Source: a virus (Duplodnaviria > Caudoviricetes). From it: DNA of 64,000 nt. The stretch is taken from IMG/VR virus record IMGVR_UViG_3300038345_000103, positions 11,255-75,254 of that record, one strand, 5' to 3'. Under the pieces are notes generated by a model that was given only the letters and a program-made list of their open reading frames with translations, ran no database searches and was not told the DNA's origin. The position numbers were made by a program, and so were the translations under genes. Positions 10,051 to 51,805 of the stretch are shown piece by piece; position 1 is the stretch's first letter, and the number at the start of each line of letters is the position of its first letter.

Positions 10051-11256
10051 ATGTTACGAAAACACGAACTATTGGGAGATTTACGGAAATTATTAGCTTT
10101 AAATGTGGCTCAGAAAAATTGGCAGAAGGATACTGCTACAAGCATTCATGAAAAGCGAAATATCCCTATTGAAATACTGATAGATATTCTTACGCAAAGA
10201 ACAGATATTGAAGATTATAATGAGTTTACCTTATTCTGTATTGCTGAAGCCTGCAATCTGAAACACGGGTTAGATTACTACTTCACTCAGTCAGAAATCA
10301 ATGATTTTAATCATTATGTCCTGAAGACAACAGAAGTAAAGTTCCCTTATAAATTTGAGGTCATAGAGGTTGTTGAAAATTCACAATATATAGGCAAAAC
10401 ATCAGTTAAAGAACTGATAAGATTGCGTGATGCTCAGCTTATTAATTATAATGAGAATGCTCAACGAACCCTTAAACGGATGAAAACCGAGGGTGGTGTT
10501 GAAATATCCTCAATCGACTTAAACCGCAAGGCTGTAAACGAAATCATGCATGACCTTACAACCGGTGAATTTATTCCTAACACTCTGACTTTCGGCATAT
10601 CGCCCGATACCGACTTCGAATATAATAAAGAAAGCAGAACGTTGATAATCAAAGATAAAATCAGATTTGATATTCTCGACGGCTATCATCGTTATATCGC
10701 CCTGTCTAATAAGTACAACTTAGACAATCGTTTTGATTACCCTATGGAGTTACGCCTTGTAGTATTCCCTGAAACAAAGGCAAGACATTTCATCTTTCAA
10801 GAGGATAAGAAGACTAAGATGCGGAAGATTGATTCCGATGCTTTATCTGCTACTGACCCTGCTAACGAGGTCTGTGCTAAGATAAAGAACAAACTTGCCG
10901 GTAATATCCTCGTAGCACGTAACAACGGAATTATCGATGAGTCGGTATTATCTGAAATGATTCGCTGTTTATGTATCAAAAACGGTGCTAAGTATGACAA
11001 CAAGATAAAGAATAGGATAAGCGACGACTTTGTTAATGCAGTTCTTATTGGGGAAGATACATTTAACACTATCGACCTAAAGGTAAAGTGGTCAGTATCA
11101 CTTACTGTTGCGTTTACATTATTGGTATATACATTCAGATTGAATGAAAAGCTTCTTATCTCTATAGATAAAACCATAAGAGAAAAGAAACTTATTACAG
11201 GCAAGACAGTTAACAGGACAGTCATTAACCGAATACGAAAGGAGGTATTGGTATGA
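10051..11256 (+). CDS. DGQHR/DndB-like (ParB-fold) protein, SPbeta YopQ-like
   Basis: INYNENAQR, ILDGYHRY, FIFQED motifs. Confidence 0.75.
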   Translation: MLRKHELLGDLRKLLALNVAQKNWQKDTATSIHEKRNIPIEILIDILTQRTDIEDYNEFTLFCIAEACNLKHGLDYYFTQSEINDFNHYVLKTTEVKFPYKFEVIEVVENSQYIGKTSVKELIRLRDAQLINYNENAQRTLKRMKTEGGVEISSIDLNRKAVNEIMHDLTTGEFIPNTLTFGISPDTDFEYNKESRTLIIKDKIRFDILDGYHRYIALSNKYNLDNRFDYPMELRLVVFPETKARHFIFQEDKKTKMRKIDSDALSATDPANEVCAKIKNKLAGNILVARNNGIIDESVLSEMIRCLCIKNGAKYDNKIKNRISDDFVNAVLIGEDTFNTIDLKVKWSVSLTVAFTLLVYTFRLNEKLLISIDKTIREKKLITGKTVNRTVINRIRKEVLV

Positions 11257-37054: not shown

Positions 37055-38239
37055 GTGATGTATATCGACAAATTGTTGCAGTTTGCTCAGGAGCATGGTA
37101 TGATAGACCTTGCTCTCATACAGCAAGAATACGACAAGATGAAACGACAACAAATTCTTGAAGGTCAGAAGATATGGCAAGCCTCAGACGGACGATGGAA
37201 AACTTATATTGAAGTTGCCGGTAAGAGGAAATTGATAGCCAAGAGTGACAGGGCAACTCTTGAAGCCACTATCTTCAAAATGCTGAAAGACCCTATACTT
37301 ACATTCAAAGAATGCTTTGACTGTTGGATTAAGGACAAGCTTGATTACGGAGAAATCCAACGTCAAACCTATGACCGATACACGGCAGATTTTAAACGTT
37401 ATATCCACAACACTGAACTTGAACATCTTAATATCAAAAATATCAACGAACTCTTTCTTGAACAATTTATTAAACAGCAGATTTCCAATAATAAATTGAC
37501 CGCTAAGAACTGGGGTAACATGCGTATTATAATCAACGGCACCATGATATATGCCCATAAACACGGCTACACTGATTTTCGAATCAGTTTATTTATGTCG
37601 GAACTGCAATTATCAAACAAAATGTTTGAGCGAAAAATCGTTAAGGATAAAGAACAAGTGTTTGATAAAAATGAAGAAGATAAGATAAAGCAGTATGTAA
37701 CCGACAATCCGTCCATGCTTGGACTTGGTGTGGTGCTAGCCTTCCATACAGGTCTCAGGATTGGCGAAGTGGCTGCTCTTAAATGGGATGATTGGAAAGA
37801 TGATATTCTGATAGTTCAACGTACTGAAATCAAATATAAGAATGATAAAGGTGAATGGATAGAAGAGGTAAGAAACTTCACGAAGGGCAGAGATGGTATT
37901 AGAGAAGTCGTCCTGACAGAGGAAGCAAAGAGGGTACTGTATCAACTTTATTCTTACACTGGACCGCAACACGATTATATTTTTATGCGTGACAATCAAC
38001 GGATTAAAGCCGCATGGCTGTCAAATAAAATCGAATCGATATGCCGATGTATCAATATTCCGCATCGTAGTTTTCATAAAATACGAAAGACATATGCTAC
38101 TACGTTAATAGACGCCGGCGTAGGTGAGAATGTCATTATAAACCAGATGGGTCATACTGAAATCCTCACCACCAAAAGATTTTACTATTATAATAAGGAA
38201 GAGATTGCCGACATCAAAACCCAACTTGATAAAGTGTAA
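37055..38239 (+). CDS. int: phage integrase (tyrosine recombinase)
   Basis: arm-binding N-terminus; HTGLRIGE, TKG, FHKIRKTY, MGH, RFYY. Confidence 0.92.
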   Translation: MMYIDKLLQFAQEHGMIDLALIQQEYDKMKRQQILEGQKIWQASDGRWKTYIEVAGKRKLIAKSDRATLEATIFKMLKDPILTFKECFDCWIKDKLDYGEIQRQTYDRYTADFKRYIHNTELEHLNIKNINELFLEQFIKQQISNNKLTAKNWGNMRIIINGTMIYAHKHGYTDFRISLFMSELQLSNKMFERKIVKDKEQVFDKNEEDKIKQYVTDNPSMLGLGVVLAFHTGLRIGEVAALKWDDWKDDILIVQRTEIKYKNDKGEWIEEVRNFTKGRDGIREVVLTEEAKRVLYQLYSYTGPQHDYIFMRDNQRIKAAWLSNKIESICRCINIPHRSFHKIRKTYATTLIDAGVGENVIINQMGHTEILTTKRFYYYNKEEIADIKTQLDKV

Positions 38240-38384
38240 TCAAGTGTAAATGCATCAAACCCTTGTATTTTCAAGGATTTATGCGAATCAGATACGATTC
38301 GAATCCCATTAGGTGCGTTAAAAACCCTTGAAATATGGGGCTGTTCGAAATCGCATATTGTTACTGTAATCAAAATGTAACCAA
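38235..38384. mobile_element. putative attP site
   Basis: arm-type repeats TGTAATCAA (38235, 38365) and TGTAACCAA (38376); AAACCCTTG twice; core GATTCGAATCCCATTAGGTGCG (38296-38317) resembles a tRNA 3' end. Confidence 0.7.
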
Positions 38385-38406
38385 GGAGAGACGCTGTATG
38401 AGAGCA

Positions 38407-39462
38407 TCACTTGGTTTTGGCTTTTAACTTAGTCTTATTATCTTTTACCATTAAATTCTTACAACCCTTTTCTGTTACATACAGATAATATTTTTCTATA
38501 TCACTTTTCTTTTCAAAAGTGTTACTGGTTATTATAACAGTATCAACACAACTATTATCAATATAGATTCCCGTACACTTGTTTTCTCCCAAAGAGCCAG
38601 TACAAAGATTATTATAAAAATAAATACCCTCGCATTGTCCGTCTTTTATTTGCGGGAAAGTTTTCTCTCCTAATAAATCATAGGAAAAATCCTTGTTGTA
38701 TATCCTTGCCACACGTCCATATTGATTAAAAATATTATCATGTACTTCAACATCGGTCATACCTATTAACGATAAACATGACTGACTTCCAGTACATGTG
38801 AAGGTGTTGTTCTTTATCTCAATATCACGATGTGTTCTACCTCCGATAATCTGCGAATGTGTACCGATACAAGCCGTAGGATAATCACGACTTGATGATT
38901 TATCGAACTTACATTCTGAAATAACAATACCCTGACACATTGTACCATCATAACATTTTGATTTCTTTGAACTTCCTTCTTTCCAAAACCCACCGGCATA
39001 TGCAGCATCTATCTGTATCATTTCTTTATACGGTACTTCTGTATTACAACCTAAGAAATTACAGCATAAAATAACTACATCTTTTGAACTGTTAATTTCA
39101 ACCGCATGACATCTTGTATCTAAAAATGTACAATTTAAAATAGCAACCTGATGACTATGAAAGAAGGTCAGCAAATTATCCGGCGAATACTTTCCCATAC
39201 CCTCAAAGATACCATCATTGATAGTTATATTACCATCGCCATTATATCCCTTGGTTGATGTTTTACAGTTATTTAAAAAGATACTCTGTATATTAGCACA
39301 TCGTCTTAAACGGGCACCATTCATATTAAGCACAGAATTAGCCTTTAATATCAATTGCTTTGTAATATTATAAGTGCCTTTCTGCCATGCAATTGTACCA
39401 CCTTTATTTAACTTCTGCTGTATGGTGGTCATTGAGTCGCTTGTATATATCATATATATCAC
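38407..39462 (-). CDS. right-handed beta-helix (pectin lyase-like) protein
   Basis: parallel beta-helix repeats (IKNNTF, VHDNIFN); GGTIAWQKGTY; HAVEINSS. Confidence 0.75.
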   Translation of the reverse strand: MIYMIYTSDSMTTIQQKLNKGGTIAWQKGTYNITKQLILKANSVLNMNGARLRRCANIQSIFLNNCKTSTKGYNGDGNITINDGIFEGMGKYSPDNLLTFFHSHQVAILNCTFLDTRCHAVEINSSKDVVILCCNFLGCNTEVPYKEMIQIDAAYAGGFWKEGSSKKSKCYDGTMCQGIVISECKFDKSSSRDYPTACIGTHSQIIGGRTHRDIEIKNNTFTCTGSQSCLSLIGMTDVEVHDNIFNQYGRVARIYNKDFSYDLLGEKTFPQIKDGQCEGIYFYNNLCTGSLGENKCTGIYIDNSCVDTVIITSNTFEKKSDIEKYYLYVTEKGCKNLMVKDNKTKLKAKTK

Positions 39463-39746
39463 CTGTTAATATATTGTTGTTTTCGATTTTCTTTGATTGC
39501 TATAAGCCGTTGCAGTTTTTGCGTATAAATATCATCTGCCGATAATCGCCGTAATGATACAAGCAGATATATCGGCAGATGATAAGGAATACGCCTATGA
39601 ATAACCATATCAATCAGATACTTAGCAGTCTTAAAATTTCTTATGTGGGTATGCCCATCTTTAAACTGCTTATCTTTATTGATTACGATAAATTCAGCAT
39701 CTGCACGAATTATAACAAAGTTCTCTTTACTGTAAATTTGATTCAT
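39459..39746 (-). CDS. conserved phage hypothetical protein
   Basis: FIVINKDKQFKDGHTHI motif. Confidence 0.6.
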   Translation of the reverse strand: MNQIYSKENFVIIRADAEFIVINKDKQFKDGHTHIRNFKTAKYLIDMVIHRRIPYHLPIYLLVSLRRLSADDIYTQKLQRLIAIKENRKQQYINR

Positions 39747-39960
39747 TGTTATTATCGTTATGAGTCTTATTATAATTAAGTGTTGAAATACCTAATAATG
39801 CTCCTAAAAAGCAGTCTATAGCAGTTATAGTACCAACTATCTGTTCACCATAAGGCAAACCCCAAATTGTCGCTAATGCGAAATAAAGAGTACCTAAAGC
39901 GGGTAAAACAACCTGAGCTATAAATTTAAGTAAATCATAAATGTGATTTGAGAATTTCAT
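39727..39960 (-). CDS. holin, Dp-1 family
   Basis: YDLLKFIAQVVLPALGTLYFALATIWGLPYGEQIVGTITA. Confidence 0.9.
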   Translation of the reverse strand: MKFSNHIYDLLKFIAQVVLPALGTLYFALATIWGLPYGEQIVGTITAIDCFLGALLGISTLNYNKTHNDNNNESNLQ

Positions 39961-40049
39961 CTGTCATCCCTACCTTTCCCTTTTAATAAAAGTAAATACC
40001 ATGCTGCTAATAGCAAATAAAGTAAGATTCCTAAAATCCATTTCAACAT
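39957..40049 (-). CDS. 30-aa single-TM peptide coupled to the holin
   Basis: MLKWILGILLYLLLAAWYLLLLKGKGRDDR; its stop overlaps the holin ATG (ATGA). Confidence 0.5.
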   Translation of the reverse strand: MLKWILGILLYLLLAAWYLLLLKGKGRDDR

Positions 40050-41056
40050 CTCATATGCACCACCCCTACTTTCTTAAAGAATCCTACTAACATATCGTCA
40101 GATGTTGCATCATTATAATGATTAACCATCTCCGGCGAATCCCAACCGACAAATTCCTGAACAATATTCTCAGGGACGCCAGCCTTCAAAAACTGCGTTG
40201 TGGCATAATGTCTGATACTATGCCAATAAAAATCCTTGCCTATCATAGTTGTCAATTGGGCAGCCCAATAATCCATTGAATCTACGGTAATATGTTCAGC
40301 CGGATTTGCAGTTTTAGGGAATAACCATATACTGTCAATACCCTTTGCCTTTCTATCATCCAACCACAGCTTCAAATACGGGTCAAATGGCTCCTTTAAT
40401 ATATACAGGTATATTTGTTTACCCTTGGAACCTTTTCCTTTAGTTATGACCTTTTCAGGCGTCTTATAGAAGATGTTTTCCAATACACACTCTGGTGTAA
40501 AGTATGATACCTTAAAACGTGTAATCTCTGCTTTACGTCGAGCAGAGTTCATAGCAAGGCTTAACGCACATGCTATTTCATATTGTTTCTTTTCTACCAA
40601 AGTATCTAATATTGATTGTAGTTCCTCCGGTTCAAAAACGGTTTTATCACGCACTAATACTTTAATAGGATTTTTAATCTTATTAATAATCGGACGAAAA
40701 TCTTTAAATTCTTCTTCTTCATCAAGAATGTCTTCAATAAAACTTGATAATGAAGACAAGGTTGACTTCACACGACGTAATCTGTTTGGACTCCATTCCC
40801 ATTCAGACAACGCTTTACCTTGAAACTTTGTTAAATCTTTCTTTGAAATTTCAGTAAATGGCTTATTATCATTATCCGTTACATTCCAACAAAAGAAGAA
40901 GTTTAAGTCATACTTATACTGTTCAATCGTTGTCTTTGCCTTATCTGTAGATTGTAGATATTCAAGAAATGATGTAATTAAATAAGCATTTTGTCTATGA
41001 AACTTTGCAATTAATTCAGGTTTCGTAATAAAGTTGAGTTTTGTTTGTCTTGACAT
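40043..41056 (-). CDS. tyrosine recombinase in the late operon (SPbeta YomM-like position)
   Basis: SARRKAE, KGKG, HSIRH, GW, NHY; RBS AAGGAG. Confidence 0.88.
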   Translation of the reverse strand: MSRQTKLNFITKPELIAKFHRQNAYLITSFLEYLQSTDKAKTTIEQYKYDLNFFFCWNVTDNDNKPFTEISKKDLTKFQGKALSEWEWSPNRLRRVKSTLSSLSSFIEDILDEEEEFKDFRPIINKIKNPIKVLVRDKTVFEPEELQSILDTLVEKKQYEIACALSLAMNSARRKAEITRFKVSYFTPECVLENIFYKTPEKVITKGKGSKGKQIYLYILKEPFDPYLKLWLDDRKAKGIDSIWLFPKTANPAEHITVDSMDYWAAQLTTMIGKDFYWHSIRHYATTQFLKAGVPENIVQEFVGWDSPEMVNHYNDATSDDMLVGFFKKVGVVHMRC

Positions 41057-41970
41057 CCTTGTTCTCCTTTCCAAATACTTAGCCACCTTTGACGAGTAGC
41101 CGTATAAGTATCTTCACTTTTAAAATCCTTTGGTATCCTTGTTATAATCTCTTGTAAATTTGTTATCCTCGTTATGTCCAATGGTACACGATAACCATTA
41201 ATGCCATTCTTAACTACATCACGGAATATCGGTATATCACATACAATCACCGGCGTACCAATCATCAATGCTTCATGTACTGCCCGACAATATCCTTCAG
41301 ACTCTGATAATTGAATCAAATAATCCGCATCAGAGATACGTTGATATAAATCTTCCTGAGAAATCTGTTGATAACAATGAATCATATTATAATGATACAT
41401 ACTTGTATCACAATAATTATCCCAAACAAAATCCACATTCATCTTACATAATATCTCACATAGCTGCTGCATACGCTGGCTGCCCTTTTTAGGCTGTATA
41501 CGGGTACAGCTTATCAATCGTAACTTCTGATGCGATTGTTTTGGTTTTAACTTTGGTACTGGCACCAACAAGCCCTCGACATAACTACATGGTAATCCAA
41601 ATCTTTTTGTAAAATTCTCTGCCGCATAACGTGATACTGCTATATAGTTTTCATTAATACAAAAAGAAGGTGGAACTTTATAATCAATCCCACCATAATC
41701 ACAATGCAATATTGTATATGCCTGCTTACATTTCACATTCTTTGGTGCAGGTTTCCAATTATATGAGTTAATAAATATGTCAGTTACATAGGTTGCTGTC
41801 TTATCATAAAACTGAAAGTCATCAAACTGGTACATGAACCGCCTTGATTGGTCATCGGTCATGATTGTTATCTCATAATCATCTTTAAATGCATTATAGA
41901 ATGACAACAACCACGTATAAATCCCGTTAATCCATTTAAGATTTTCAACGTACAATAAAATCTCTTTCAT
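41011..41970 (-). CDS. glycosyltransferase, GT-B (family 4-like)
   Basis: SESEGYCRAVHEALMIGTPVIVCD. Confidence 0.85.
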   Translation of the reverse strand: MKEILLYVENLKWINGIYTWLLSFYNAFKDDYEITIMTDDQSRRFMYQFDDFQFYDKTATYVTDIFINSYNWKPAPKNVKCKQAYTILHCDYGGIDYKVPPSFCINENYIAVSRYAAENFTKRFGLPCSYVEGLLVPVPKLKPKQSHQKLRLISCTRIQPKKGSQRMQQLCEILCKMNVDFVWDNYCDTSMYHYNMIHCYQQISQEDLYQRISDADYLIQLSESEGYCRAVHEALMIGTPVIVCDIPIFRDVVKNGINGYRVPLDITRITNLQEIITRIPKDFKSEDTYTATRQRWLSIWKGEQGCQDKQNSTLLRNLN

Positions 41971-42793
41971 TCATCATTCCTTTTATTTCTTCACGTAATT
42001 GTTGTATATCCTCTTTGATTGTTTCGTCTTTGATTTCCATATAAGTCCGATACATAGTATACAACAACAAACCCTTTTCATTTCTTATTAACTCCGCATC
42101 TTGAACTATTTCTTCAAGAAACTGCAATCGTGCCTGATGAGCCAAAATTAAATCCTTTGTTTTATATAGATTACGTCCGGCTATTTGTCCACCAAACCGA
42201 TAATAATATGTAATCATCGGTAGGAGAGCAATACTTTCTGCTTTCCATACTAACTTATGAGTAGTGAACGTATCGTTATGTGTTAGTCCAGTTGGGAATT
42301 TTATATCATTAAATAACTTACGCCGATATAATTTATTCCATACTGTATTAAAAGTCACATTAAAAGCCCTAAATGGGAATCCACATATCTCCATCAACAC
42401 TTGACGCTTGTCAAATATAATAGGCTTATCAGAACCTGAACCTAAGTTAACATCTGCCTTTTGTGTATATCTACCTACAGCAATATCAGCATTGGTATCT
42501 ATCAGTGTTCGCATTAGTAATTCCAACGTCCGGCGATAGATATAATCGTCCGCATCCATAAAATATAGATACTCTCCTCGTGCATATAATAAAGCAATAT
42601 TCTGTGCTTCCGCTTGCCCAACATTATGGTCGAGGGTGATTTGTTCCACACCCTCAAACTCATAATGCCGTTGACTACCATCATCAACAAGGAGAAACTG
42701 TATTTTAGAAAATGTCTGATTTAATACTGAATCCACAGCTTGCTTAAGCTGGTCATATGGAGTATTATAATATGTCATAATTACAGTAATCAT
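41945..42793 (-). CDS. glycosyltransferase family 2
   Basis: LLVDDGS, YFMDADD, VWNKLYRR. Confidence 0.9.
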   Translation of the reverse strand: MITVIMTYYNTPYDQLKQAVDSVLNQTFSKIQFLLVDDGSQRHYEFEGVEQITLDHNVGQAEAQNIALLYARGEYLYFMDADDYIYRRTLELLMRTLIDTNADIAVGRYTQKADVNLGSGSDKPIIFDKRQVLMEICGFPFRAFNVTFNTVWNKLYRRKLFNDIKFPTGLTHNDTFTTHKLVWKAESIALLPMITYYYRFGGQIAGRNLYKTKDLILAHQARLQFLEEIVQDAELIRNEKGLLLYTMYRTYMEIKDETIKEDIQQLREEIKGMMNERDFIVR

Positions 42794-44586
42794 AATATAT
42801 CCTGTCCAATATATAACTTACGCATCTTACATCTGTTTATATACAAACGGCAAAACCATTCAGCATATGTATTGCTATTTAAACAAACAAAAGGGATAGG
42901 TTCAGTTGAGGTGTTAAATTCTTGATGGGTTGCCTCTGAACCATCAATGTAGATTGTGATTTTTGATATTAATCCGTTAGTCAATTCAACCTTAAATCGT
43001 ACGGTATGCCACTCATTATAACTCATCGATAATGCTGTATTGCCTATACTATACGTATGTCTTTCGAGAGCTTCGCTGGCTTCTTCTATTTCAATATATG
43101 GAGGATAGCTTCCCGCCGGATAAAATCCAAACATAAATACTTGACGGTCAACTGTATGTAAACTACCATAGCGGTCTTCGTATGTAAATGGAGTAAAGAA
43201 TCCAAGTTCTATATTATCCAAAGTATAAAAATTTACTTCCATATCAATATAGAATGTACATGTAGTAGGTATGATTCGATTGTTTATGTTAGCATAATCA
43301 TACAACCAACCAAGGTATGCATTGTCATTTTCACCTGTATCTAATACACCATTTGATAATGTCCATGTAGGTTCGTCATACATACAATCAAACATTTGAC
43401 CTTGAAGAGCAGTGCGAGGCTCCATAGCAGAACTATCAATTGTAAATGAACAAGTTCTTGAACTATCATATCGAACACTATCTCTGCCGTCAATTGAGAA
43501 GTCTGCATTGAAGAAATTACCATCCCAAACAGGAGGAGCATCAAGAGGTCTAAGATATGTTATCCTTGCATATCCATTACCGGCTTTAGGCTTTTTTTCG
43601 ATTGCTGCGACTGAATGATTTGATTTAGGTATTGTATAAGCATCTTCAGTAGTTACCTTTGCAACACCATATCCATACATCTTCTTATTAGTCAAGAGAG
43701 TGTTACCTATATATCCACTACCTGCACCTGCAGGACTGACACCCTCTTCAGCACCATAACCGCCATATAAACCGCCACCACCACCGGGAGCGGCTCCTTG
43801 TCCAAAAGCATACCCTGTTGATTGTGTTCCTGATTTACCTGTAATGGTCTGTCCACCATACTGAGGATTACTACCTGCGGCTCCACCACCACTAGCAGCA
43901 TAACTACCTAACGGAACAGTATCAACCAAATTTCTAACATTAGATTCCAGTTGCAATACAACCTTTGTTGCGTCAGTAGTATCTACAGCTTCGCCATCAT
44001 TAATATCTGCAAGAGTACTTAACGATAAAATCCCATTTTTACCGGATATTGCCGGAACACTTGACCACTGATAAGTCACGGGTAAACTACCATTTATATA
44101 CAAATTGAGTTCGGCACTTGTTAAAAAAACTGCGCCATAATCATATAAATCATATTTCTTGTATCGATAGTCTATACTATCTTTATTTGTAATGTAAGTA
44201 AATAAAGATTGTAAATTTGATGTACCCGTTAATGTTAAATTATGGTCATTACCATAATAATAGTTATATACAGGTGTACCGACAAAACCGCTAAATATTT
44301 GCAAATATAAGCCGGTGTTATTTCCGGTTGTTTGTATAAATTCTTCATTTGCAATATATAAATCGGTAATACCCGACGGAATATTAAACGCTGACACTAT
44401 ATAATAGCAAGTTCGATTATTGCCATAATCGGGCGCAATAATACAAGCATTATATCCTAAAGCGTTTACATTTGCTAAAACTTGAGCAAAAGTTCTGTAA
44501 GTGTCCGCACTCGGTGCGGGGTTGCGACCATTTTCAAAAGGATACTCGTTTGTATCGTCTAAAGGTTGTAACCTTGCATATGCCAT
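42790..44586 (-). CDS. tail/receptor-binding protein with the C-terminal third of a glycine-rich domain and a probable lectin-like C-terminus
   Basis: GYAFGQG..GGGGGLYGG..GSGYIGN..GNGYARIT. Confidence 0.7.
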   Translation of the reverse strand: MAYARLQPLDDTNEYPFENGRNPAPSADTYRTFAQVLANVNALGYNACIIAPDYGNNRTCYYIVSAFNIPSGITDLYIANEEFIQTTGNNTGLYLQIFSGFVGTPVYNYYYGNDHNLTLTGTSNLQSLFTYITNKDSIDYRYKKYDLYDYGAVFLTSAELNLYINGSLPVTYQWSSVPAISGKNGILSLSTLADINDGEAVDTTDATKVVLQLESNVRNLVDTVPLGSYAASGGGAAGSNPQYGGQTITGKSGTQSTGYAFGQGAAPGGGGGLYGGYGAEEGVSPAGAGSGYIGNTLLTNKKMYGYGVAKVTTEDAYTIPKSNHSVAAIEKKPKAGNGYARITYLRPLDAPPVWDGNFFNADFSIDGRDSVRYDSSRTCSFTIDSSAMEPRTALQGQMFDCMYDEPTWTLSNGVLDTGENDNAYLGWLYDYANINNRIIPTTCTFYIDMEVNFYTLDNIELGFFTPFTYEDRYGSLHTVDRQVFMFGFYPAGSYPPYIEIEEASEALERHTYSIGNTALSMSYNEWHTVRFKVELTNGLISKITIYIDGSEATHQEFNTSTEPIPFVCLNSNTYAEWFCRLYINRCKMRKLYIGQDIL

Positions 44587-44621
44587 TTAATACACTTCCT
44601 TTCTACGGTAAAACCGTTATT

Positions 44622-45191
44622 TTATACTATGCCTGCTTGTAACCAATTGTAAATCAAGGACATTTGTTCAGCAGTCGGCTCTTCTTGATTATACAAATAA
44701 TGGGTGCTGGGCAAGCCTTGGTTAATCAAAATATTAGTAACTGTACTTGGGAGATAAATTCCTATATATCCACCCATACCAGTATCAGAGGAATTTTGGT
44801 CACCAAACGTATAATAATATGTTATCCCACTTTTAGTTTTTTCCGTATAAGGATTGGAGTAGATACTAGTTATAGACCAACCATCGGCGTATATAAATTT
44901 CTTAGAAGACTGATAATCATTTATACCCCTATCGGCAGCTATGATACTTTGCCAGTTTTCACTAACTTCTAAATAATCTTTATCACACAAATGAATAGTA
45001 TCAGAGGAAACATTAAATCCTATAACTTCAACACCTTGATACCCAGACTCACATCTTGTATAAAATGCATTATAATTATAATTGCCAATAATATCTAAAA
45101 TCTGTGTTACAGTTCTAGATGTTGATTGACTTTGTGTGTATCCTCTTATAGGAATTTGTTCACCAAGATTAGTGAATATTTTAACACTCAT
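44622..45191 (-). CDS. putative tail accessory protein
   Basis: RBS AAGGAGG; Y/S/T-rich. Confidence 0.6.
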   Translation of the reverse strand: MSVKIFTNLGEQIPIRGYTQSQSTSRTVTQILDIIGNYNYNAFYTRCESGYQGVEVIGFNVSSDTIHLCDKDYLEVSENWQSIIAADRGINDYQSSKKFIYADGWSITSIYSNPYTEKTKSGITYYYTFGDQNSSDTGMGGYIGIYLPSTVTNILINQGLPSTHYLYNQEEPTAEQMSLIYNWLQAGIV

Positions 45192-45204
45192 TTAATCGTC
45201 CTCC

Positions 45205-46032
45205 TTAATATTCATCAACATATACAAATGAGGGTTTTGCAACTTGGTTTGTAGCATCAATTAAAAATCCAACGTTGATTTTGTTTATATCCGCAATTGT
45301 AGTACCAACGGGAGAATCAAAAGAATAAATGGCTGTAGAACCCGAATAAAGTGTAAAGGTTATTTTGCTATTAGCCACTTTGACAGTCATTTTGTTATTA
45401 TCTCCTGACCATAATATATCAATCTCGCTACCATCCCACGCACTACTATCTATTGCAAGTCCACTACCACCACCACCAGCTACGATTAAAACATCGCTTA
45501 AGTGTGACGATAATTCTGAAAGAAGTCCCGTTCTTGTAGCTATATGTGTTGCTCCACCACCAAAGGATGAAACAAGATATTCAGTTCCTGTAATTGCTAA
45601 ATAAGCATTATGTAGGTCATTAGTATCTCCCTCAGATATTAAATGCTCCACATAAAACCTAGTTTGGCTTGACGAATGATAACATATAAAAATCTGCCCT
45701 TGTTCCGTTTCATCATCAACAGCAAACGCAAGTCCAGTAAAATAATTTGTTTGCCAAATGGCAGTATTGGCTATTTGGTTCCACTCTACACCTTGATTCA
45801 TACGATATGCTTTAACACGAAGTGAACCGCTATTATTATTCAAATAATCAAGTTTTAAAGCATCTTTATTAAAAAATGTAAACCAATCAGATACCGTTCC
45901 ATAATCATATAGATTTTTACCTTCAGTGTACATTTTCGAGCTACTTTCTGCCTGATAAAATAATGACGTAACATTATTCAAAATGGTATTTGTAAATCCA
46001 TCGCCCTTAATTGTTGCCTGCCTTACCGACAT
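45205..46032 (-). CDS. tail protein with the middle part of a glycine-rich domain
   Basis: FGGGATHIA...VLIVAGGGG; RBS AAGGAG. Confidence 0.65.
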   Translation of the reverse strand: MSVRQATIKGDGFTNTILNNVTSLFYQAESSSKMYTEGKNLYDYGTVSDWFTFFNKDALKLDYLNNNSGSLRVKAYRMNQGVEWNQIANTAIWQTNYFTGLAFAVDDETEQGQIFICYHSSSQTRFYVEHLISEGDTNDLHNAYLAITGTEYLVSSFGGGATHIATRTGLLSELSSHLSDVLIVAGGGGSGLAIDSSAWDGSEIDILWSGDNNKMTVKVANSKITFTLYSGSTAIYSFDSPVGTTIADINKINVGFLIDATNQVAKPSFVYVDEY

Positions 46033-46050
46033 TTTGTTCAACTCCTTTTT

Positions 46051-46083
46051 TAAAAAAAATAGGGCAGCGAATTAACACTGCCC
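46051..46083 (-). terminator. intrinsic terminator after the large tail gene
   Basis: GGGCAG/CTGCCC stem followed by a U-tract on the - strand. Confidence 0.65.
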
Positions 46084-46089
46084 GCAATA

Positions 46090-49000
46090 TTAAATCTCTT
46101 CGCCGTCAACATATATAGTATCATATTTATTTTTAGGGGTATAGTAAACTAAAGGCATAGCTGCCGCACCCGAATATGCCTGTCCGACATAAGATGTTCC
46201 ATCTGTTGTCGTATACATATTGGAAAATGTAGCATAATATTGTTGCTGTACAAGACTCGTTCCGTCATCAGATAATTTAAATCTAAAATACTCTTTAAAT
46301 TTATTCGGAAAGTTCCAACAAGTATAATATGTTCCTGATGCAGGGTCTTGTATTCCATCGTTATCCCAAAGTTTTAATCCGTTTCCAAGTGCAAATTCGT
46401 CAGAGCGGAAAGCTGCCACAAGGTATCCTCGAATATCTTTCGCACCATTAAACAACAAAAATGAATCATATACATTACTACCCGTTGCCGCTACAAGCAT
46501 TTGTGCTATTTGACTTATTGTAACTTCTGCTCCTGCCTGATTGCTGACTTGCTCTATCGGGAATTTGGTATTAGGAGATGGTAATAAATATGGATGTGCC
46601 ACTGGAGGGGCAACTCTATCTCCACCACCATTATAACCATTCTGACCACCAACAGCAATATAAAGAACATCGCCCTCATGAAGTTCAACTTCACCCGTAC
46701 AGTATCCGCCATATCCGCCATCATAAGTGTTAATAGTTCCTCCTTGGGCACCCCAAACTTCAAGCTGATATACACCACTAACAGGAACAGTCCACGATTG
46801 GACAGTGCCTGTATAATTAAATTCATATGAACCTGAGCGTGAAATTACATAGGTATTGCTTTCCTTTGATGTATCATCAACTAGAGCAAATATCTTTACA
46901 TATACATCACCTATCGGAATATCAGATATTTCTGCAATCTGAGAAGTATAAGCTTGTATTGTAAAGTTTCTTTGACGATATGCTAATATACCATCGTCCT
47001 CATCTTCAGGTTCTGACCCTAACTTATAAACAATTTTAAGGTCATTATAGAAGCCGGGGAATAAGCTATAATTTACACTGCCCAAAGTATCTTCCACAAT
47101 AATGCTGTCAATATAAGGAGCATCACCTGTATTAATAGCATCCATATCGCTTGACAGTTTATGTTCTGATGTAACTGCATATACAGTATAATAATATTTA
47201 CCCTTAGACTGATACTTAATGGTATTATCAACATAAGGAGTACTTTTATACTTATCACGATTTGATTCTCCACTATATTCAGTTAAGATTGTACCATCAG
47301 TAATAAAAGTATCTCCTTCATAATATGATTCTGCAGGAGAGCCAGCTTTACGAACCACAATAGTTCTTTCCCAAAGAGCAAATAATTCATCGGCGGGGTC
47401 ATCCCACTGTACTGTTGTTACCTGCTCATCGTCATCATAATTAACTGCCAAATTGTAAGGAGCATCCAATGTATCCTGTTTGGGCTTTGCATTTGTGGCA
47501 TACACAAAAACATCAATTGTTTCTGAAGGTGCAGTACCTAAATACTTAAATTTTAATTTATTCTTTGCCTTTTTAATACACACAATACCAGCATTATAGT
47601 AATCTACTGCACTTGCGTAGGCAGGAGTGATATATAAGCATTGTTTTTCTTTTGTACCCTCATCATTATCTTTCGTAATACCAATAACATCTATTACTTG
47701 ACATTGTTCATTATCCCAATCATTAGGGTCAAGAGCAATCTTAACATACTCCGTACCTAACAAAATGTTATCCATATAGACACGTTTAAAATATCCAAAC
47801 TTCCAAGGAAATTTATGTGAACCAATATTACATTCACCGGTTTGGTCATTTGATGCACCGTGCCCATCATCTTTTGAGTCGCTTGCTAAAAGGTTTCTGC
47901 TTCGAGTTAATGATACATAATAACGTTTACCATTCTGTCCGGCGATAGGGGCACTACGCAATTTCCACGCATTATGTGCATGGTCAAGAGCATAACTGTT
48001 ATCATCAGCCGTAATAACAGGATACCCTCCGACATAACCCGCATCAGCATAAATCGTACCTTTAATACGAAGTTCTCCCGTTGTACCATCAGAATATAAA
48101 GCTGGTGTTCTTATAAGACCATTGATAAGATTAAACAAGCTACCTGAATCCGAAAAGTACTGTCCTGTAGTAAAGCGGTAATTTGCCGACTTGATTTCAC
48201 CAGTCATGATATTATCACCACTGATTACAGTTTCACCATCAGTAAGGTCACCCTCAAATACAACAGTACCACCAAGCGTGATATTACCTGTTGTACTTAT
48301 ATCAATACCATTATACTTAATAGTAATAGTACTTGCCCTGTCACCATTTTGTACCGTAAGAGTAATCCTATCTAACTCTTGAGCAATCAATGAAAGAGCC
48401 TGTTCAGCCGAAATCTTTCCTTCAATCAAACCATCAAGCACATTAAAAGTTGTATTAACAGTACCGCCCATCATACCCTGACCATAAGCATCACTATAAG
48501 CATAGTCATTTGATATATTATCAGACCTTTGTACTAAGTTAGATTGTCCCTGATTATTTGCCTTATAGAAATTATTAACAACATCCAACGTTTTTGCCAT
48601 AGACTTACGCATTCTATTAACAACACCATTATCCAATGATATGTCAGCAAAGTTGACATTGATAGCATCAAGGTTTTCAAAGTCCACTTCATAATCAATC
48701 AGACGGAGTTTATATAAGATTCCATTGCTATCCATAATCCTTATCCAGTTACCAACCTGAAAATTATCCCTTAATGCCGAAAATTCATCAATAACAAGTA
48801 AGTTCTGTAGATTTGTACTGATGTTATAACTATACTTGTTATTTTCCTTAATCTTATATTCAGCCTGAAGAACAAACTCATAAGCACGTTTTATCAACTC
48901 AGAATTACTTAAAGAATCAGAAATAAATGCACTGTCAGTATAATCGAACTTCTTACGGAAGGACGTGGATATATAATTATCATTTGAAAAATCAGCCTCA

Positions 49001-50991
49001 CGCCTGAACGCATTCAGTTCAACCCATTGTTCCGGTGTAAGATTATTTTCAAGTTTCATAATGGCTATAGTATCTGTAATCATTTCCCATAATTTAGCCA
49101 CCATAGATGTTGTTGAATCTTTAAAGTCAACGGCTTTGACTTCGCTTTCTCTTTCACCTAATGCACTTTGAATTATTCCTATTTTACTCTGAATCTGAGC
49201 ATATATTATATATGCATCGCTGCTCCAATTATCAGCCCCAATACTGACAAGCATCTCAAGGGCTTTAGCAAAACAATCACCAATACTTTGAAGCATTTGA
49301 TATGAATAATATCTCAGGGCATTATAAAAATCGCCAGTACTGATAATATATAAATTTTCAATCGATGTGTTACCCTGACTTCTATTCAACAATGTTTGCA
49401 TAACACTGTTTTGAGCATAATTATAAATGTTCTCATTGATTGTAATATATAATGTGTTTGTTACCGCAGTATCTGATTTATCATAATAATTGGTTACAGA
49501 TAATCTACCATACCATGTATATGTATCACTACCTCTTGAAAGACCTTGATAAATAACCTGAATATCATATAAAGGGTTTGATTTAATCTTGGCATAATTA
49601 ACCACCGCAGCCGACGCCTGAGCTAACGTTAATGTATCTATATTGTATACTGCAACAGGCGACAATGCTTCTTCTGTTAATTCGGCAACAATTTGAGCCG
49701 CCGTTGTACTGTCATTTTCAACTGAAGGCATAAGTGAATGATTAAGATATTCACCCATATCTAAAGCACCATAATAAGTCTCAATCAATTCTGAATAACC
49801 AGTAATAGAATCAACAGGCTCGACAGTAACGCTCGGGTCTAAAGCACGATATTTATTAACAATATAATTATAATATCCATAAGGCAATAACGACATGTCG
49901 AACACATGTGTGTTTTGATAATCATTATACAAACTTTCGTACGTATTTAAAGCCGTCTTTAATCCGTCGCTCATTTCATTTTTCATCTCATCAGAAAATG
50001 ACCATACGTATCCCCCATTAGGATTACACTGACGAATTGCAGCAGTCATTAAATCATCCCCGCCGGTCACATGGTAACAGTTACATATCGCTTCACTATT
50101 CCTTGTTATCGTGAGATTATTTCCAAGGCTCTCTCTGCTCACCAGAATGCCCGTATTTGCCCCGAAACCCTCATTAAGGTCAGAACTACCACACTCAGGA
50201 CAAACGCCCGTAAAATGACCACGATAACCGCAATCATTACAGCTTGTTAAAGCATCATATACATTAACCGTTCTATTATGTGTTACACTGCAATCAAAAT
50301 CAACAATAATAGATTCTTCTTCAGCGACAGTCTTTAAACATTCCATGATTGCATTACCATTAAATTCAAAAATACGCTGAATATCCATGATGCTCTCATC
50401 AACATGTCCGATTGTGTAATGTGGAGCATAACTAAATATCTTATGTAGGAGAGAAGAGTCTCTTAATATCTGCATTCTGTATGCGATTGTTTCTTCCTCT
50501 GTTTCTTTTGTGTATTTAGGGTCAGAGTTCCATATATCGTCATACCTATCTAAATCTGTCGGGTCTCTATATAATACAACAGGAAAGTTTGCATCATAAT
50601 CCGGCAATATGATAGCAGCCTCAGTATTTATCTGAAGTCCATACACCTTTATCAAATTCAATTCTGCTTCTGCTAAACGTGTCAAAGTTAAAGATTTATA
50701 TACTCCATTTTCATCTTCAGACGTATCACATTCAATCGCAAAATAACAATCCATTTCTAACACGTATATGAGCTTATACATGTTGATTTCATTCCAAAAT
50801 GGTGTAAGTGTATCCCCGTCATTTTTATAGACCTTAAAAGCCATTTCAGGGGCATTCTCGCAACTATTCTTAAATACTACATCTTTAATATTAGTCAGAA
50901 GCCCAACCCTTTGCCCGCCTTTACTTGTCAAAATACACGTCGGATTCTCCGCCTTATTGGAGGTATCAAAGTTTAATGTTAAATTAATCAT
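46090..50991 (-). CDS. large tail-associated/spike protein (Tal-like N-terminus, FN3-like repeats, N-terminal part of a glycine-rich domain)
   Basis: follows Dit; FQVGNWIRI..RLIDYEVDF; FNYTGTVQSWTVP..LEVWGAQGG. Confidence 0.8.
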   Translation of the reverse strand: MINLTLNFDTSNKAENPTCILTSKGGQRVGLLTNIKDVVFKNSCENAPEMAFKVYKNDGDTLTPFWNEINMYKLIYVLEMDCYFAIECDTSEDENGVYKSLTLTRLAEAELNLIKVYGLQINTEAAIILPDYDANFPVVLYRDPTDLDRYDDIWNSDPKYTKETEEETIAYRMQILRDSSLLHKIFSYAPHYTIGHVDESIMDIQRIFEFNGNAIMECLKTVAEEESIIVDFDCSVTHNRTVNVYDALTSCNDCGYRGHFTGVCPECGSSDLNEGFGANTGILVSRESLGNNLTITRNSEAICNCYHVTGGDDLMTAAIRQCNPNGGYVWSFSDEMKNEMSDGLKTALNTYESLYNDYQNTHVFDMSLLPYGYYNYIVNKYRALDPSVTVEPVDSITGYSELIETYYGALDMGEYLNHSLMPSVENDSTTAAQIVAELTEEALSPVAVYNIDTLTLAQASAAVVNYAKIKSNPLYDIQVIYQGLSRGSDTYTWYGRLSVTNYYDKSDTAVTNTLYITINENIYNYAQNSVMQTLLNRSQGNTSIENLYIISTGDFYNALRYYSYQMLQSIGDCFAKALEMLVSIGADNWSSDAYIIYAQIQSKIGIIQSALGERESEVKAVDFKDSTTSMVAKLWEMITDTIAIMKLENNLTPEQWVELNAFRREADFSNDNYISTSFRKKFDYTDSAFISDSLSNSELIKRAYEFVLQAEYKIKENNKYSYNISTNLQNLLVIDEFSALRDNFQVGNWIRIMDSNGILYKLRLIDYEVDFENLDAINVNFADISLDNGVVNRMRKSMAKTLDVVNNFYKANNQGQSNLVQRSDNISNDYAYSDAYGQGMMGGTVNTTFNVLDGLIEGKISAEQALSLIAQELDRITLTVQNGDRASTITIKYNGIDISTTGNITLGGTVVFEGDLTDGETVISGDNIMTGEIKSANYRFTTGQYFSDSGSLFNLINGLIRTPALYSDGTTGELRIKGTIYADAGYVGGYPVITADDNSYALDHAHNAWKLRSAPIAGQNGKRYYVSLTRSRNLLASDSKDDGHGASNDQTGECNIGSHKFPWKFGYFKRVYMDNILLGTEYVKIALDPNDWDNEQCQVIDVIGITKDNDEGTKEKQCLYITPAYASAVDYYNAGIVCIKKAKNKLKFKYLGTAPSETIDVFVYATNAKPKQDTLDAPYNLAVNYDDDEQVTTVQWDDPADELFALWERTIVVRKAGSPAESYYEGDTFITDGTILTEYSGESNRDKYKSTPYVDNTIKYQSKGKYYYTVYAVTSEHKLSSDMDAINTGDAPYIDSIIVEDTLGSVNYSLFPGFYNDLKIVYKLGSEPEDEDDGILAYRQRNFTIQAYTSQIAEISDIPIGDVYVKIFALVDDTSKESNTYVISRSGSYEFNYTGTVQSWTVPVSGVYQLEVWGAQGGTINTYDGGYGGYCTGEVELHEGDVLYIAVGGQNGYNGGGDRVAPPVAHPYLLPSPNTKFPIEQVSNQAGAEVTISQIAQMLVAATGSNVYDSFLLFNGAKDIRGYLVAAFRSDEFALGNGLKLWDNDGIQDPASGTYYTCWNFPNKFKEYFRFKLSDDGTSLVQQQYYATFSNMYTTTDGTSYVGQAYSGAAAMPLVYYTPKNKYDTIYVDGEEI

Positions 50992-51004
50992 TGCATCACC
51001 TCAT

Positions 51005-51805
51005 TTATACTACAATCTTAATAATAGGTCTGTATTTAATTACCATCGTACATGCCATTGAAGCCGTAATCGCATTAGCCCGTGAAGCCGCACTATTTGC
51101 TACTCTAGGGAAAATATAATTAAAATCATCAAGTAAGGTTGTATGCCCGCTATTTGAACTTGCAATTGAAGGATAAGTAAATGTTATCTTCTCATTCGCA
51201 GAGCAGTTCTTAACAATCGTAGTTCTATTTTCCAATGCATTAGTAATAGATAAATTACCGCTGGCACCACAAGTAACCTCAACACTTGAAGGATAAATAT
51301 ATCCTATTTCGTCTGATGTGTCGTTCAATGTTTTTGTTAATGCATCAGATGTAAATGTGAGAGTAGAAGTAACCTCAGCCTTAACAGCGAACGGACGATT
51401 AGTTTTCATACTCAATTCAATACCATACATATCACCGCCGACTAGTACGGCACTTACATTAAACGATGCTTCAAATGTAATATCTGTCCAACCCGTAGCA
51501 TCAAACACTAATGGTCTGAAAGTCTTTTTATTTAACCACCTTGCCAATGTTGAGAATTGCTCCGGTGTAATTATCATGTCCTTCTGCTCACTGACACAAG
51601 GCGACTTACAAATATAAAATGTTGCTTCTAAGCACTTATCATACTTATAATCAGCCAGTAATTGCTTAGCACCCTTTTGCACAGGTACTGTACTAAATGA
51701 TATTTCGGAACCAGTCGCCCGTTCCCCACCATTATCAAACGAACATACAGTATACCCTAATGTGCTTAATGTAGTACCATCATAAGTAAAATCCTTTACG
51801 TACAT
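51005..51805 (-). CDS. distal tail protein (Dit-like)
   Basis: KDFTYDGTTLS start; position between TMP and Tal. Confidence 0.7.
   Translation of the reverse strand: MYVKDFTYDGTTLSTLGYTVCSFDNGGERATGSEISFSTVPVQKGAKQLLADYKYDKCLEATFYICKSPCVSEQKDMIITPEQFSTLARWLNKKTFRPLVFDATGWTDITFEASFNVSAVLVGGDMYGIELSMKTNRPFAVKAEVTSTLTFTSDALTKTLNDTSDEIGYIYPSSVEVTCGASGNLSITNALENRTTIVKNCSANEKITFTYPSIASSNSGHTTLLDDFNYIFPRVANSAASRANAITASMACTMVIKYRPIIKIVV

Follow-up and report, generated by a model that had tools for sequence, protein, structure and literature searches.

The window analysed here, a stretch of 64,000 nucleotides (positions 11,255 to 75,254 of IMG/VR virus record IMGVR_UViG_3300038345_000103; Duplodnaviria, Caudoviricetes), carries the late tail module of a phage, and in it a single glycine-rich domain of the ALK/LTK type is encoded in three pieces, G1, G2 and G3, by three separate genes, termed A, B and C. 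The split is collinear with the unsplit domain and conserved across a clade of rumen phages, the breaks lie in loops at which single-chain relatives carry inserts, and the modules beside the breaks have been swapped between close relatives. The best-supported reading, to which a probability of about 0.6 is assigned, is that the pieces associate in trans after translation and would so make up one domain. It is favoured because the split is collinear and conserved, because conserved pieces stand between hypervariable flanks, because the breaks fall in loops that carry inserts in single chains, and because a model of the complex unites the pieces. A preliminary description of the same DNA had offered this reading beside a second one, the excision of cassettes as circles, for which no support was obtained.

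One domain in three genes

The family to which the pieces belong, ALK_LTK_GRD (Pfam PF12810), has 243 model positions and a gathering cut-off of 24.5 bits, and was searched for with hmmscan. Three genes on the minus strand match it in turn. Gene A (46090..50991; 1633 amino acids, aa), an open reading frame (ORF) whose translation is a large tail-tip protein, contains G1 (FNYTG ... VGGQNGYNGGG; 46615..46836), with residues 1405-1454 aligned to Pfam positions 7-58 (E 9.8e-11, 42.5 bits). Gene B (45205..46041; 278 aa as listed from a TTG codon; architecture V1-G2-W) contains G2 (GGGATHIA ... VLIVAGGGGSG; 45439..45588), with residues 152-207 aligned to positions 77-127 (E 1.4e-3). Gene C (42790..44586; 598 aa) contains G3 (ASGGGAAG ... 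GNGYARITY; 43552..43896), with residues 231-345 aligned to positions 122-243 (E 2.6e-5, 24.8 bits). The three matches are collinear and nearly non-overlapping and together span positions 7-243 of 243; those of genes A and C exceed the cut-off.

Hidden Markov models (HMMs) were built for G1, G2 and G3 and for the modules W, T, V1 and V2, and the six-frame ORFs of all loci were scanned with them. The piece models recover G1 with an independent E-value (iE) of 1.3e-31, and 28 of its columns are invariant across 17 relatives; G2 is placed at 45439-45573 (iE 1.4e-24) and G3 at about 43549-43893 (iE 2.1e-22). The same piece order is shown by PHROG families 5811 and 1589. The earlier claim that the parts of one domain occur in order across genes of 1633, 278 and 598 aa is thus borne out by Pfam, PHROG and the piece HMMs, and the genes described with it, all on the minus strand, and the terminator at 46062 agree with the ORF list and a consensus scan.

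Described members of PF12810 are single polypeptides, whereas the pieces here are in three ORFs parted by stop codons, ribosome-binding sites and a terminator-like hairpin. At the boundary of genes A and B a TAA stop is followed by this hairpin and its T-run (46062..46083, minus strand; consensus scan and sequence) and by an AAGGAG-spaced ATG. The second break, between G2 and G3, holds a further gene, D (44622..45191, minus strand; 189 aa), whose frame differs from that of genes A, B and C; the B/D and D/C boundaries each have a TAA, a Shine-Dalgarno sequence and an ATG. The preliminary description had rightly listed stops, ribosome-binding sites and the terminator at the breaks and had overlooked gene D. 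The start of gene B is likely the ATG at 46032, which gives a product of 275 aa; the full-length relatives P0005-P0007, 77-94% identical to gene B, begin at that ATG.

Genes A, B and C share a reading frame, their starts being congruent modulo 3, and this could be taken as a sign that one chain arises through intron self-splicing, split-intein action, ribosomal bypass or readthrough. The shared frame noted earlier is a matter of chance, however: counted from ORF coordinates, about one-third of adjacent piece-bearing gene pairs in the relatives share frame, which is the chance level. Moreover, each of the 'inserts' is a long open frame that has a ribosome-binding site and an ATG to itself, and V1 folds confidently when modelled. 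Genes A and B are parted by two in-frame stops and the hairpin, and B and C by an out-of-frame gene and many stops. No match to Rfam, group I and II introns included, was obtained at E up to 1 in 42000-47500, and no intein or Hint domain was found in Pfam at E up to 1. Across relatives the junctions lack both a conserved nucleophile (Cys, Ser or Thr) and a His-Asn motif, and their residues vary (GGG/DRV, GGGG/NYT and GGG/MLT; ..SS/FGGG and ..TS/NGGG). Joining at the RNA or protein level is regarded as highly improbable.

Two specific forms of interruption were also considered. Stop recoding or readthrough was rejected, as the frame through 42790-46089 has many stops of all three kinds between genes B and C and two TAA codons between A and B. 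A split by a homing endonuclease, of the Aeh1 nrdA type, was rejected as well; the sole intervening gene, that for the 189-aa protein, consists of a V2-like module and T, and matched no Pfam or PHROG family.

Conservation of the split and the sites of the breaks

Relatives were collected by alignment-based scans of IMG/VR and JGI metagenomes, which yielded 43 loci; about 24 of these are distinct and carry the split. No close relatives were found in the annotated phage collection by megablast or tblastn, and IMG/VR scans with the single proteins of genes B and C returned nothing, the relatives being reached only via gene A and alignments; one gene A homologue, 52% identical, lies in the 98.8-kb IMG/VR contig L002. 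In the loci of this clade G1 always occupies the C-terminus, or a position close to it, in the homologue of gene A, and G2 and G3 follow in later genes on the same strand. The order is always G1, G2, G3a, G3b, in two to four collinear pieces and mostly in two or three. None of the about 24 loci has a duplicated piece, and all pieces are present wherever the contig end does not cut the locus.

The break between G2 and G3 seen in the window recurs in L028 and in database proteins P0005-P0008, P0011 and P0012, in which G2 is joined to W, and P0045-P0049, in which a module is joined to G3. L028 has three breaks, its 3.9-kb contig ending before G1 and carrying G2-W-T, then V-G3a, then V-G3b, and in L029 G3 is broken at two places. 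Five whole relative records were searched, three of them 93-100% complete and one a complete genome of 135.7 kb that has terminal repeats; in each, PF12810 scores the G1 piece only and no full-length copy, a search that gives no count of G2 or G3 copies. In the complete 135.7-kb relative (L009:5880-9440) a gene for 1186 aa stands between the G1-bearing and G2-bearing genes, and therefore the pieces need not come from adjacent genes. A gene-B-type profile matched 258 representative clusters at or below 1e-30, and 135 of the best 150 are without G1. No fused G1-V1-G2 form of gene B was found among the longer matches, which share only W or the G2 motif, although this is weak evidence.

The contiguous domain, often in tandem copies, is found in more distant phages (L010-L014, L041, L044 and L045) and in cellular proteins. 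In a further distant phage (L042:7434-8702, from the 144.6-kb JAEEGL013603757.1, and L043, Ga0310697_10004035) the contiguous domain has no interruption other than TAG codons in frame. When TAG is translated as sense, the ORF content of that locus about doubles; the same treatment of TGA changes nothing. An invariant tryptophan (47 of 47 homologues) stands opposite one of the two TAG codons, the second falls within a poly-Gly stretch and is ambiguous, and the 16.5 kb covered contains no tRNA gene.

Break sites were located by aligning the pieces to a profile of unsplit domains. There are only four, and each is a variable-length, insertion-rich loop between conserved glycine-rich motifs. The G1/G2 break has YNGGG on its left and GGGATHIA on its right, and the G2/G3 break VAGGGGG and GGSGGG; the two breaks within G3 fall between FGQG and GGGGGxYGG (38/39) and between GGGGGxYGG and GAGGGSGYI (55/56). 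Long inserts also interrupt the LTK and ALK sequences in the profile alignment, at the G1/G2 and G2/G3 sites. The gene boundary is flanked, on one or both sides, by the V1/V2 modules of about 170 aa or by the W-T domain. For G1 and G2 the arrangements are G1-V/G2 (L004 and L019), G1/V-G2 (L003, L006, L009 and L017) and G1-V/V-G2 (the window, L002 and L005); in L030 this break has no module, and the third piece of L005 is a bare 70-aa mini-gene. The mean identity of the pieces among split loci is 70-77%, the flanking modules are so variable that BLASTP detects only 8 of 153 pairs of them, and the C-modules after G1 are homologous to the N-modules before G2 (BLASTP 1e-13).

Single-chain relatives carry inserts at these very sites. 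P0241, P0242, P0254 and P0239 have G2 and G3a, an insert of 150-185 aa and then G3b, with no gene boundary, and P0248 is a single chain with inserts at two of the break sites. Therefore the flanks belong to one fold despite the inserts, and these relatives tie the split forms to ordinary loop insertions.

The boundary between G3a and G3b indicates how a gene break might arise in such a loop. In L007 (11715-11745), L033 (8275-8305) and L037 (4211-4240) it reads TAT AAA GGA GGn ACA AGn TrA TG; there the Gly codons GGAGG double as Shine-Dalgarno sequence for the gene that follows, whose start codon overlaps the preceding stop (TAATG or TGATG). The same overlap occurs in L029 (990-1020), with GGG GGT replacing GGA GG. 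This arrangement suggests coupled translation at the G3a/G3b boundary. Gly codons (GGA GGN) would offer a ready Shine-Dalgarno sequence, a start codon shortly downstream of a glycine-rich motif could found a new gene, and glycine-rich coding sequence may in this way predispose to new internal starts or gene fission.

Other bovine gut samples contain contigs with 88-99% matches to the pieces and to parts of the genes. In one such contig 46084-46591, within the C-module of gene A, is replaced by 490 different bases, and at the joints 44055-74 to 44581-604 contigs break off at both edges of the N-module of gene C. Two intervals, 44110-44532 in that N-module and 45661-45942, are uncovered by contigs of other runs, a hole that alone proves nothing. 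The relatives of gene C (P0045-P0049) have linker, G3 and C-module in common and differ in their N-modules. The flanking joints, together with such relatives, suggest recent module swapping among near relatives.

Exchange by another route had been proposed in the preliminary description, namely that cassettes are excised and reinserted as circles at in-frame microhomologies, possibly with the help of the nearby recombinase. Under such a reading part of the population would carry the continuous domain. The repeats are where they had been placed: the 11-mer TGGTGGTGGAG lies at all three junction-like positions (46620-30, 45552-62 and 43881-91), and a fourth time at 2049, against 0.02 copies expected in shuffles, and TGGGATGGTA lies at 45429 and 43518. 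Tyrosine recombinase genes are nearby, and one contig from another bovine sample joins 45561 to 46621. However, the 11-mer reads GGT GGT GGA G, and GGT makes up 112 of the 214 Gly codons of these genes; the 11-mer is the commonest Gly codons spelling a conserved GGG motif, and the 'microhomologies' are glycine codons, as a caveat to the proposal had allowed. GGTAGT has seven occurrences in the region, and 6 of 28 GGG pairs have their 9-mer in common, where codon use by itself would predict about 1.5. Beyond the Gly-codon 11-mers, 38-51.5 kb holds no longer direct or inverted repeats of the site-specific recombinase kind; only scattered low-identity pairs (at most 35 nt, 65-94% identical) occur in 38000-51500, none of them bounding segments. 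In the probable source run the contig is colinear with no deletion joint, although contigs could miss rare variants. The shorter match of the joining contig spans a mere 45 nt, at an identity of at least 88%, with unknown content between, and the contig therefore fits the conserved motif of a diverged relative and not a deletion product. Finally, the relatives have the same breakpoints and a fixed piece order, an outcome that the preliminary description itself had named as speaking against circles. Excision and reinsertion are close to refuted.

Two further DNA-level mechanisms were rejected. For a shufflon or invertible segment there are no bounding repeats and no serine invertase in the 75-kb record, and the piece order is fixed, tyrosine recombinase genes being present all the same. 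For a diversity-generating retroelement there is no reverse transcriptase (PF00078) in the 75-kb record, which is about 47% complete, and the tail region has no long imperfect repeat pair that could serve as template and variable repeat.

Predicted assembly of the pieces

The complex was modelled from residues 1378-1633 of gene A, gene B as the scored partner and residues 1-360 of gene C, with custom alignments. Gene B obtained interaction prediction scores from aligned errors (ipSAE) of 0.79, 0.76 and 0.67 (median 0.76); the best of three controls, with chain C replaced, reached 0.31, and unrelated partners gave 0.00. Runs agreed in at least 46% of contacts, with a partner predicted local distance difference test (pLDDT) value of at least 47. 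The confident interface comprises exactly G1 (chain 1 residues 20-83), G2 (154-193) and G3 (230-342), and the tightest pairs are between the G1 strand LYIAVGG and GATHIATRTG of G2, as expected of neighbouring strands in one sheet. With regard to the family fold, a tumour necrosis factor (TNF)-like β-sandwich with a polyglycine-II lattice, the model unites the three pieces and pairs the strands of G1 and G2, at a pLDDT of only about 40-58. The multimer modelling that the preliminary description had put forward is thus compatible with inter-chain assembly. When modelled alone, G2 has a pLDDT of 31-44 and G3 of about 21-28, compared with 78-94 for the neighbouring V1; the monomer model of gene C is poor overall (mean pLDDT 41.7).

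A mechanism can be proposed on this basis. The three genes would encode complementary segments of one tail-fibre tip domain of the ALK/LTK type (TNF-like plus polyglycine), and the segments, translated separately, would associate non-covalently into a single domain. This association would tie the products of genes B and C to the C-terminal end of protein A, and with them the variable modules that they carry (V1, W, V2 and a ConA-like lectin module). Loops between paired glycine-rich motifs would have been expanded into modules of about 170 aa with a gene boundary set beside the module, so that the conserved glycine core would become a multi-chain hub and the modules could be swapped as separate genes.

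The described phage form of the domain is that of cyanophage Pam3 gp24, which lies at the distal, receptor-recognising end of the tail fibre and has six loops of two glycine-rich motifs each, with a conserved stem and hypervariable distal tips proposed to bind the receptor (PMC9608196). By homology to Pam3 gp24, and by likeness to the T-even gp38 adhesins, the broken loops would correspond to hypervariable, receptor-facing distal tips, and the modules placed there may have a receptor-binding role.

Several points weigh against assembly in trans. The complex score expresses model confidence, and pLDDT is only about 40-58. In the calibration, 58 of the 80 solved complexes attain the ipSAE mark used, as do 2 of the 110 mismatched pairs, counts that hold only roughly here as custom alignments were used. 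The halves of a split domain tend to score well by their likeness to solved single-chain ALK/LTK structures, and the score therefore speaks for fold compatibility and not for binding. The multimer modelling covered hetero-chain sets. The loci share descent, and the collinear loci are non-independent events; the Pfam score of gene B, 19.1 bits, is by itself below the cut-off of 24.5. The terminator-like hairpin between genes A and B means that equimolar co-expression is not guaranteed, and the distal placement of the loops is taken from homology to Pam3 gp24 as described in PMC9608196.

These points leave room for an alternative in which the pieces do not reassemble but are conserved leftovers of insertion, each working alone as a glycine-rich linker or as a homo-oligomeric polyglycine bundle. 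The tail-fibre genes here are extremely mosaic, and the W-T, V1 and V2 modules are mobile; G2 joined to W recurs with different N-modules, so that each chain is a viable unit of exchange; and hetero-assembly is backed by a model only. Unlike the W-T and V modules, however, the G pieces are constant in order and copy number across the about 24 loci, and no complete genome checked carries a spare full domain. Pieces of just 17-45 residues stay conserved, as in the middle piece of L029 and the 70-aa mini-gene of L005, G2 and G3 are predicted to be unfolded when modelled alone, and from the single chains with inserts at these sites the flanks are seen to make up one fold. The independent working of the pieces is accordingly judged unlikely, and assembly in trans is preferred.

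Flanking modules, genomic setting and known systems

The modules at the breaks had been described as unrelated, which profile searches contradict for some of them. A V2 profile, made from the N-module of gene C (598 aa; 44059-44586, minus strand) and those of three relatives, matches the module of about 170 aa directly after G1 at the C-terminus of gene A (46093..46614, minus strand; E 3.5e-10) and, weakly, the N-module of gene D (E 3.4e-3 in an 18-sequence set), which also resembles the L002 N-module (3.8e-4). Internal BLASTP among the tail proteins gave nothing significant, the homology of the modules needing profiles. V1, of about 150 aa, forms the N-terminus of gene B (45589..46032, minus strand; VN HMM 6.5e-55) and was modelled with AlphaFold2 as a β-sandwich with a C-terminal helix (pLDDT 78-94 for residues 1-150). 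The V1 and W folds found no Foldseek match at E up to 0.001, which does not show them to be new folds, and VIA-align returned scattered β-propeller-blade and lectin-like rows for them at Z of at most 5.2 (at most 4.3 for the lectin-like rows of V1). V1 and the 189-aa protein had no usable match in the ESM Atlas.

In gene C the V2 module is followed by a conserved linker of 55 aa, by G3 and by a C-terminal module of about 200 residues (42793..43416, minus strand) with a concanavalin A (ConA)-like β-sandwich of the laminin G (LamG), lectin or carbohydrate-binding module (CBM) type. Its AlphaFold2 pLDDT is mostly 50-90 over about residues 410-598, and VIA-align gave Z of 12.5 to 1za4, 10.9 to the CBM66 structure 4b1m and 9.5 to 9n6a, the receptor-binding domain of mycobacteriophage TM4 gp23. 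The module went undetected by Pfam; judging by the modelled fold, it is plausibly a carbohydrate-binding receptor module.

W (WDGSEIDILWSG ... AKPSF; 45214..45438, minus strand; iE 2.7e-42) forms the C-terminus of gene B, and the T tail (YNQEEPTAEQMSLIYNWLQAG; 44628-44702, minus strand; iE 3.7e-13; motif YNQEEPT..AQM..IY.WL) forms the end of gene D. In many tail proteins W-T is one C-terminal domain; it is contiguous, and also in tandem, at the C-termini of P0163-P0167, and T directly follows W in the same chain in P0006 and P0013. In the window W closes gene B and T closes gene D (44622-45438), and therefore the same kind of event has split a second domain. Gene D probably joins the complex of A, B and C. 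In L024 (1956-3502) and P0250 two T tails stand directly before G2-G3 at the gene start, and the preceding gene ends with W.

The region forms the late tail module, on the minus strand, of a linear 75-kb IMG/VR record, about 47% complete, from an uncultured phage of cattle rumen. The order of genes is a 3658-aa tape measure, a 99-aa gene, a 266-aa DUF6558 protein (N plus C parts, directly upstream of gene A), A, B, D and C; after gene C come two glycosyltransferases (GT2 and GT1), a tyrosine recombinase and a holin of the Dp-1 type (39727-39960). The glycosyltransferases and the 347-aa tyrosine recombinase adjoin the fibre genes directly downstream (40043-42793). The recombinase gene is at 40043-41086, and a second, integrase-family one lies on the opposite strand at 37055-38239.

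Intact members of PF12810 include LTK (7NX0), ALK (7N00/7LS0) and C. elegans SCD-2 (7LIR). A profile of the unsplit relatives of the clade matches LTK (7NX0) at E 1.8e-6 and ALK at about 1e-4; a sequence search of the PDB with one unsplit relative gave no match, a profile being needed. The window pieces belong to the same sequence family and jointly cover its positions 7-243, but the described members are one continuous polypeptide with short loops, whereas here there are three genes (two to four in the relatives), with modules of about 170 aa and gene boundaries at the places of those loops. In the T-even gp38 adhesins (T6; S16 gp38, PDB 6F45) conserved glycine-rich motifs alternate with hypervariable segments (PMC3157838). 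There, too, the variable elements that determine host range are displayed on a conserved glycine core, and exchanges tend to fall at or near conserved motifs; gp38 is, however, a single small protein with short variable segments, in contrast to the whole domains and the interrupted chain found here, and no sequence relationship was detected.

Phage genes in pieces are also known among enzymes, T4 topoisomerase gp39/gp60 being one whose products reassemble. In Aeromonas phage Aeh1 NrdA is split by the mobE homing endonuclease gene, and the product reassembles (PMC3045599). In both, one functional unit is made from separate genes by non-covalent association after translation. Those cases are enzymes, split at a single site by a selfish endonuclease, whereas the present one is a structural domain, putatively receptor-binding, that has as many as four breaks, all in loops, and no endonuclease; the inserted material consists of variable structural modules, and the state is kept throughout a clade. 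Fractured genes with split inteins (PMC2677866) share the stop, the intervening ORF, the new start and the collinear flanks, but here there is no Hint domain and there are no splicing residues, and reassembly, if any, would be non-covalent. Fragmented phage enzymes such as Aeh1 NrdA (PMC3045599) are the nearest precedents, and no published description of a glycine-rich tail domain encoded in pieces was found in the literature.

The present system also differs from those that switch fibres at the DNA level. Receptor-binding fibre ends are varied by the invertible segments of Mu (Gin) and P1 (Cin), by the R64 shufflon (Rci) and by diversity-generating retroelements. The nearby tyrosine recombinase gene is a point of likeness, but 38-51.5 kb holds no repeated recombination sites or inverted segments, the 75-kb record has neither serine invertase nor reverse transcriptase, and the piece order is fixed.

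A wider proposal is made tentatively, at somewhat less than even odds: that the polyglycine core is a heteromeric socket of three chains, or four with the W/T split and the 189-aa protein, and that the conversion of hypervariable loop tips into genes is a general evolutionary route in these phages. Receptor-binding modules would then become exchangeable as whole genes, with the conserved pieces keeping them plugged into the tail. If assembly in trans is correct, it would be a natural case of protein-fragment complementation serving as a structural joint in a virion, with binding modules hanging from the loop tips, and the polyglycine-II/TNF-like fold, which is shared with the human ALK and LTK receptors, would be seen to tolerate chain breaks and inserts of about 170 aa at defined loops. 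It would explain why automated annotation of such genomes yields fragment-only PF12810 hits, and would provide a compact natural plug-and-socket by which binding domains could be mounted on phage tails or on scaffolds of other kinds. For the rumen phages themselves, it would explain how host-recognition modules can be exchanged as separate genes without loss of attachment to the tail.

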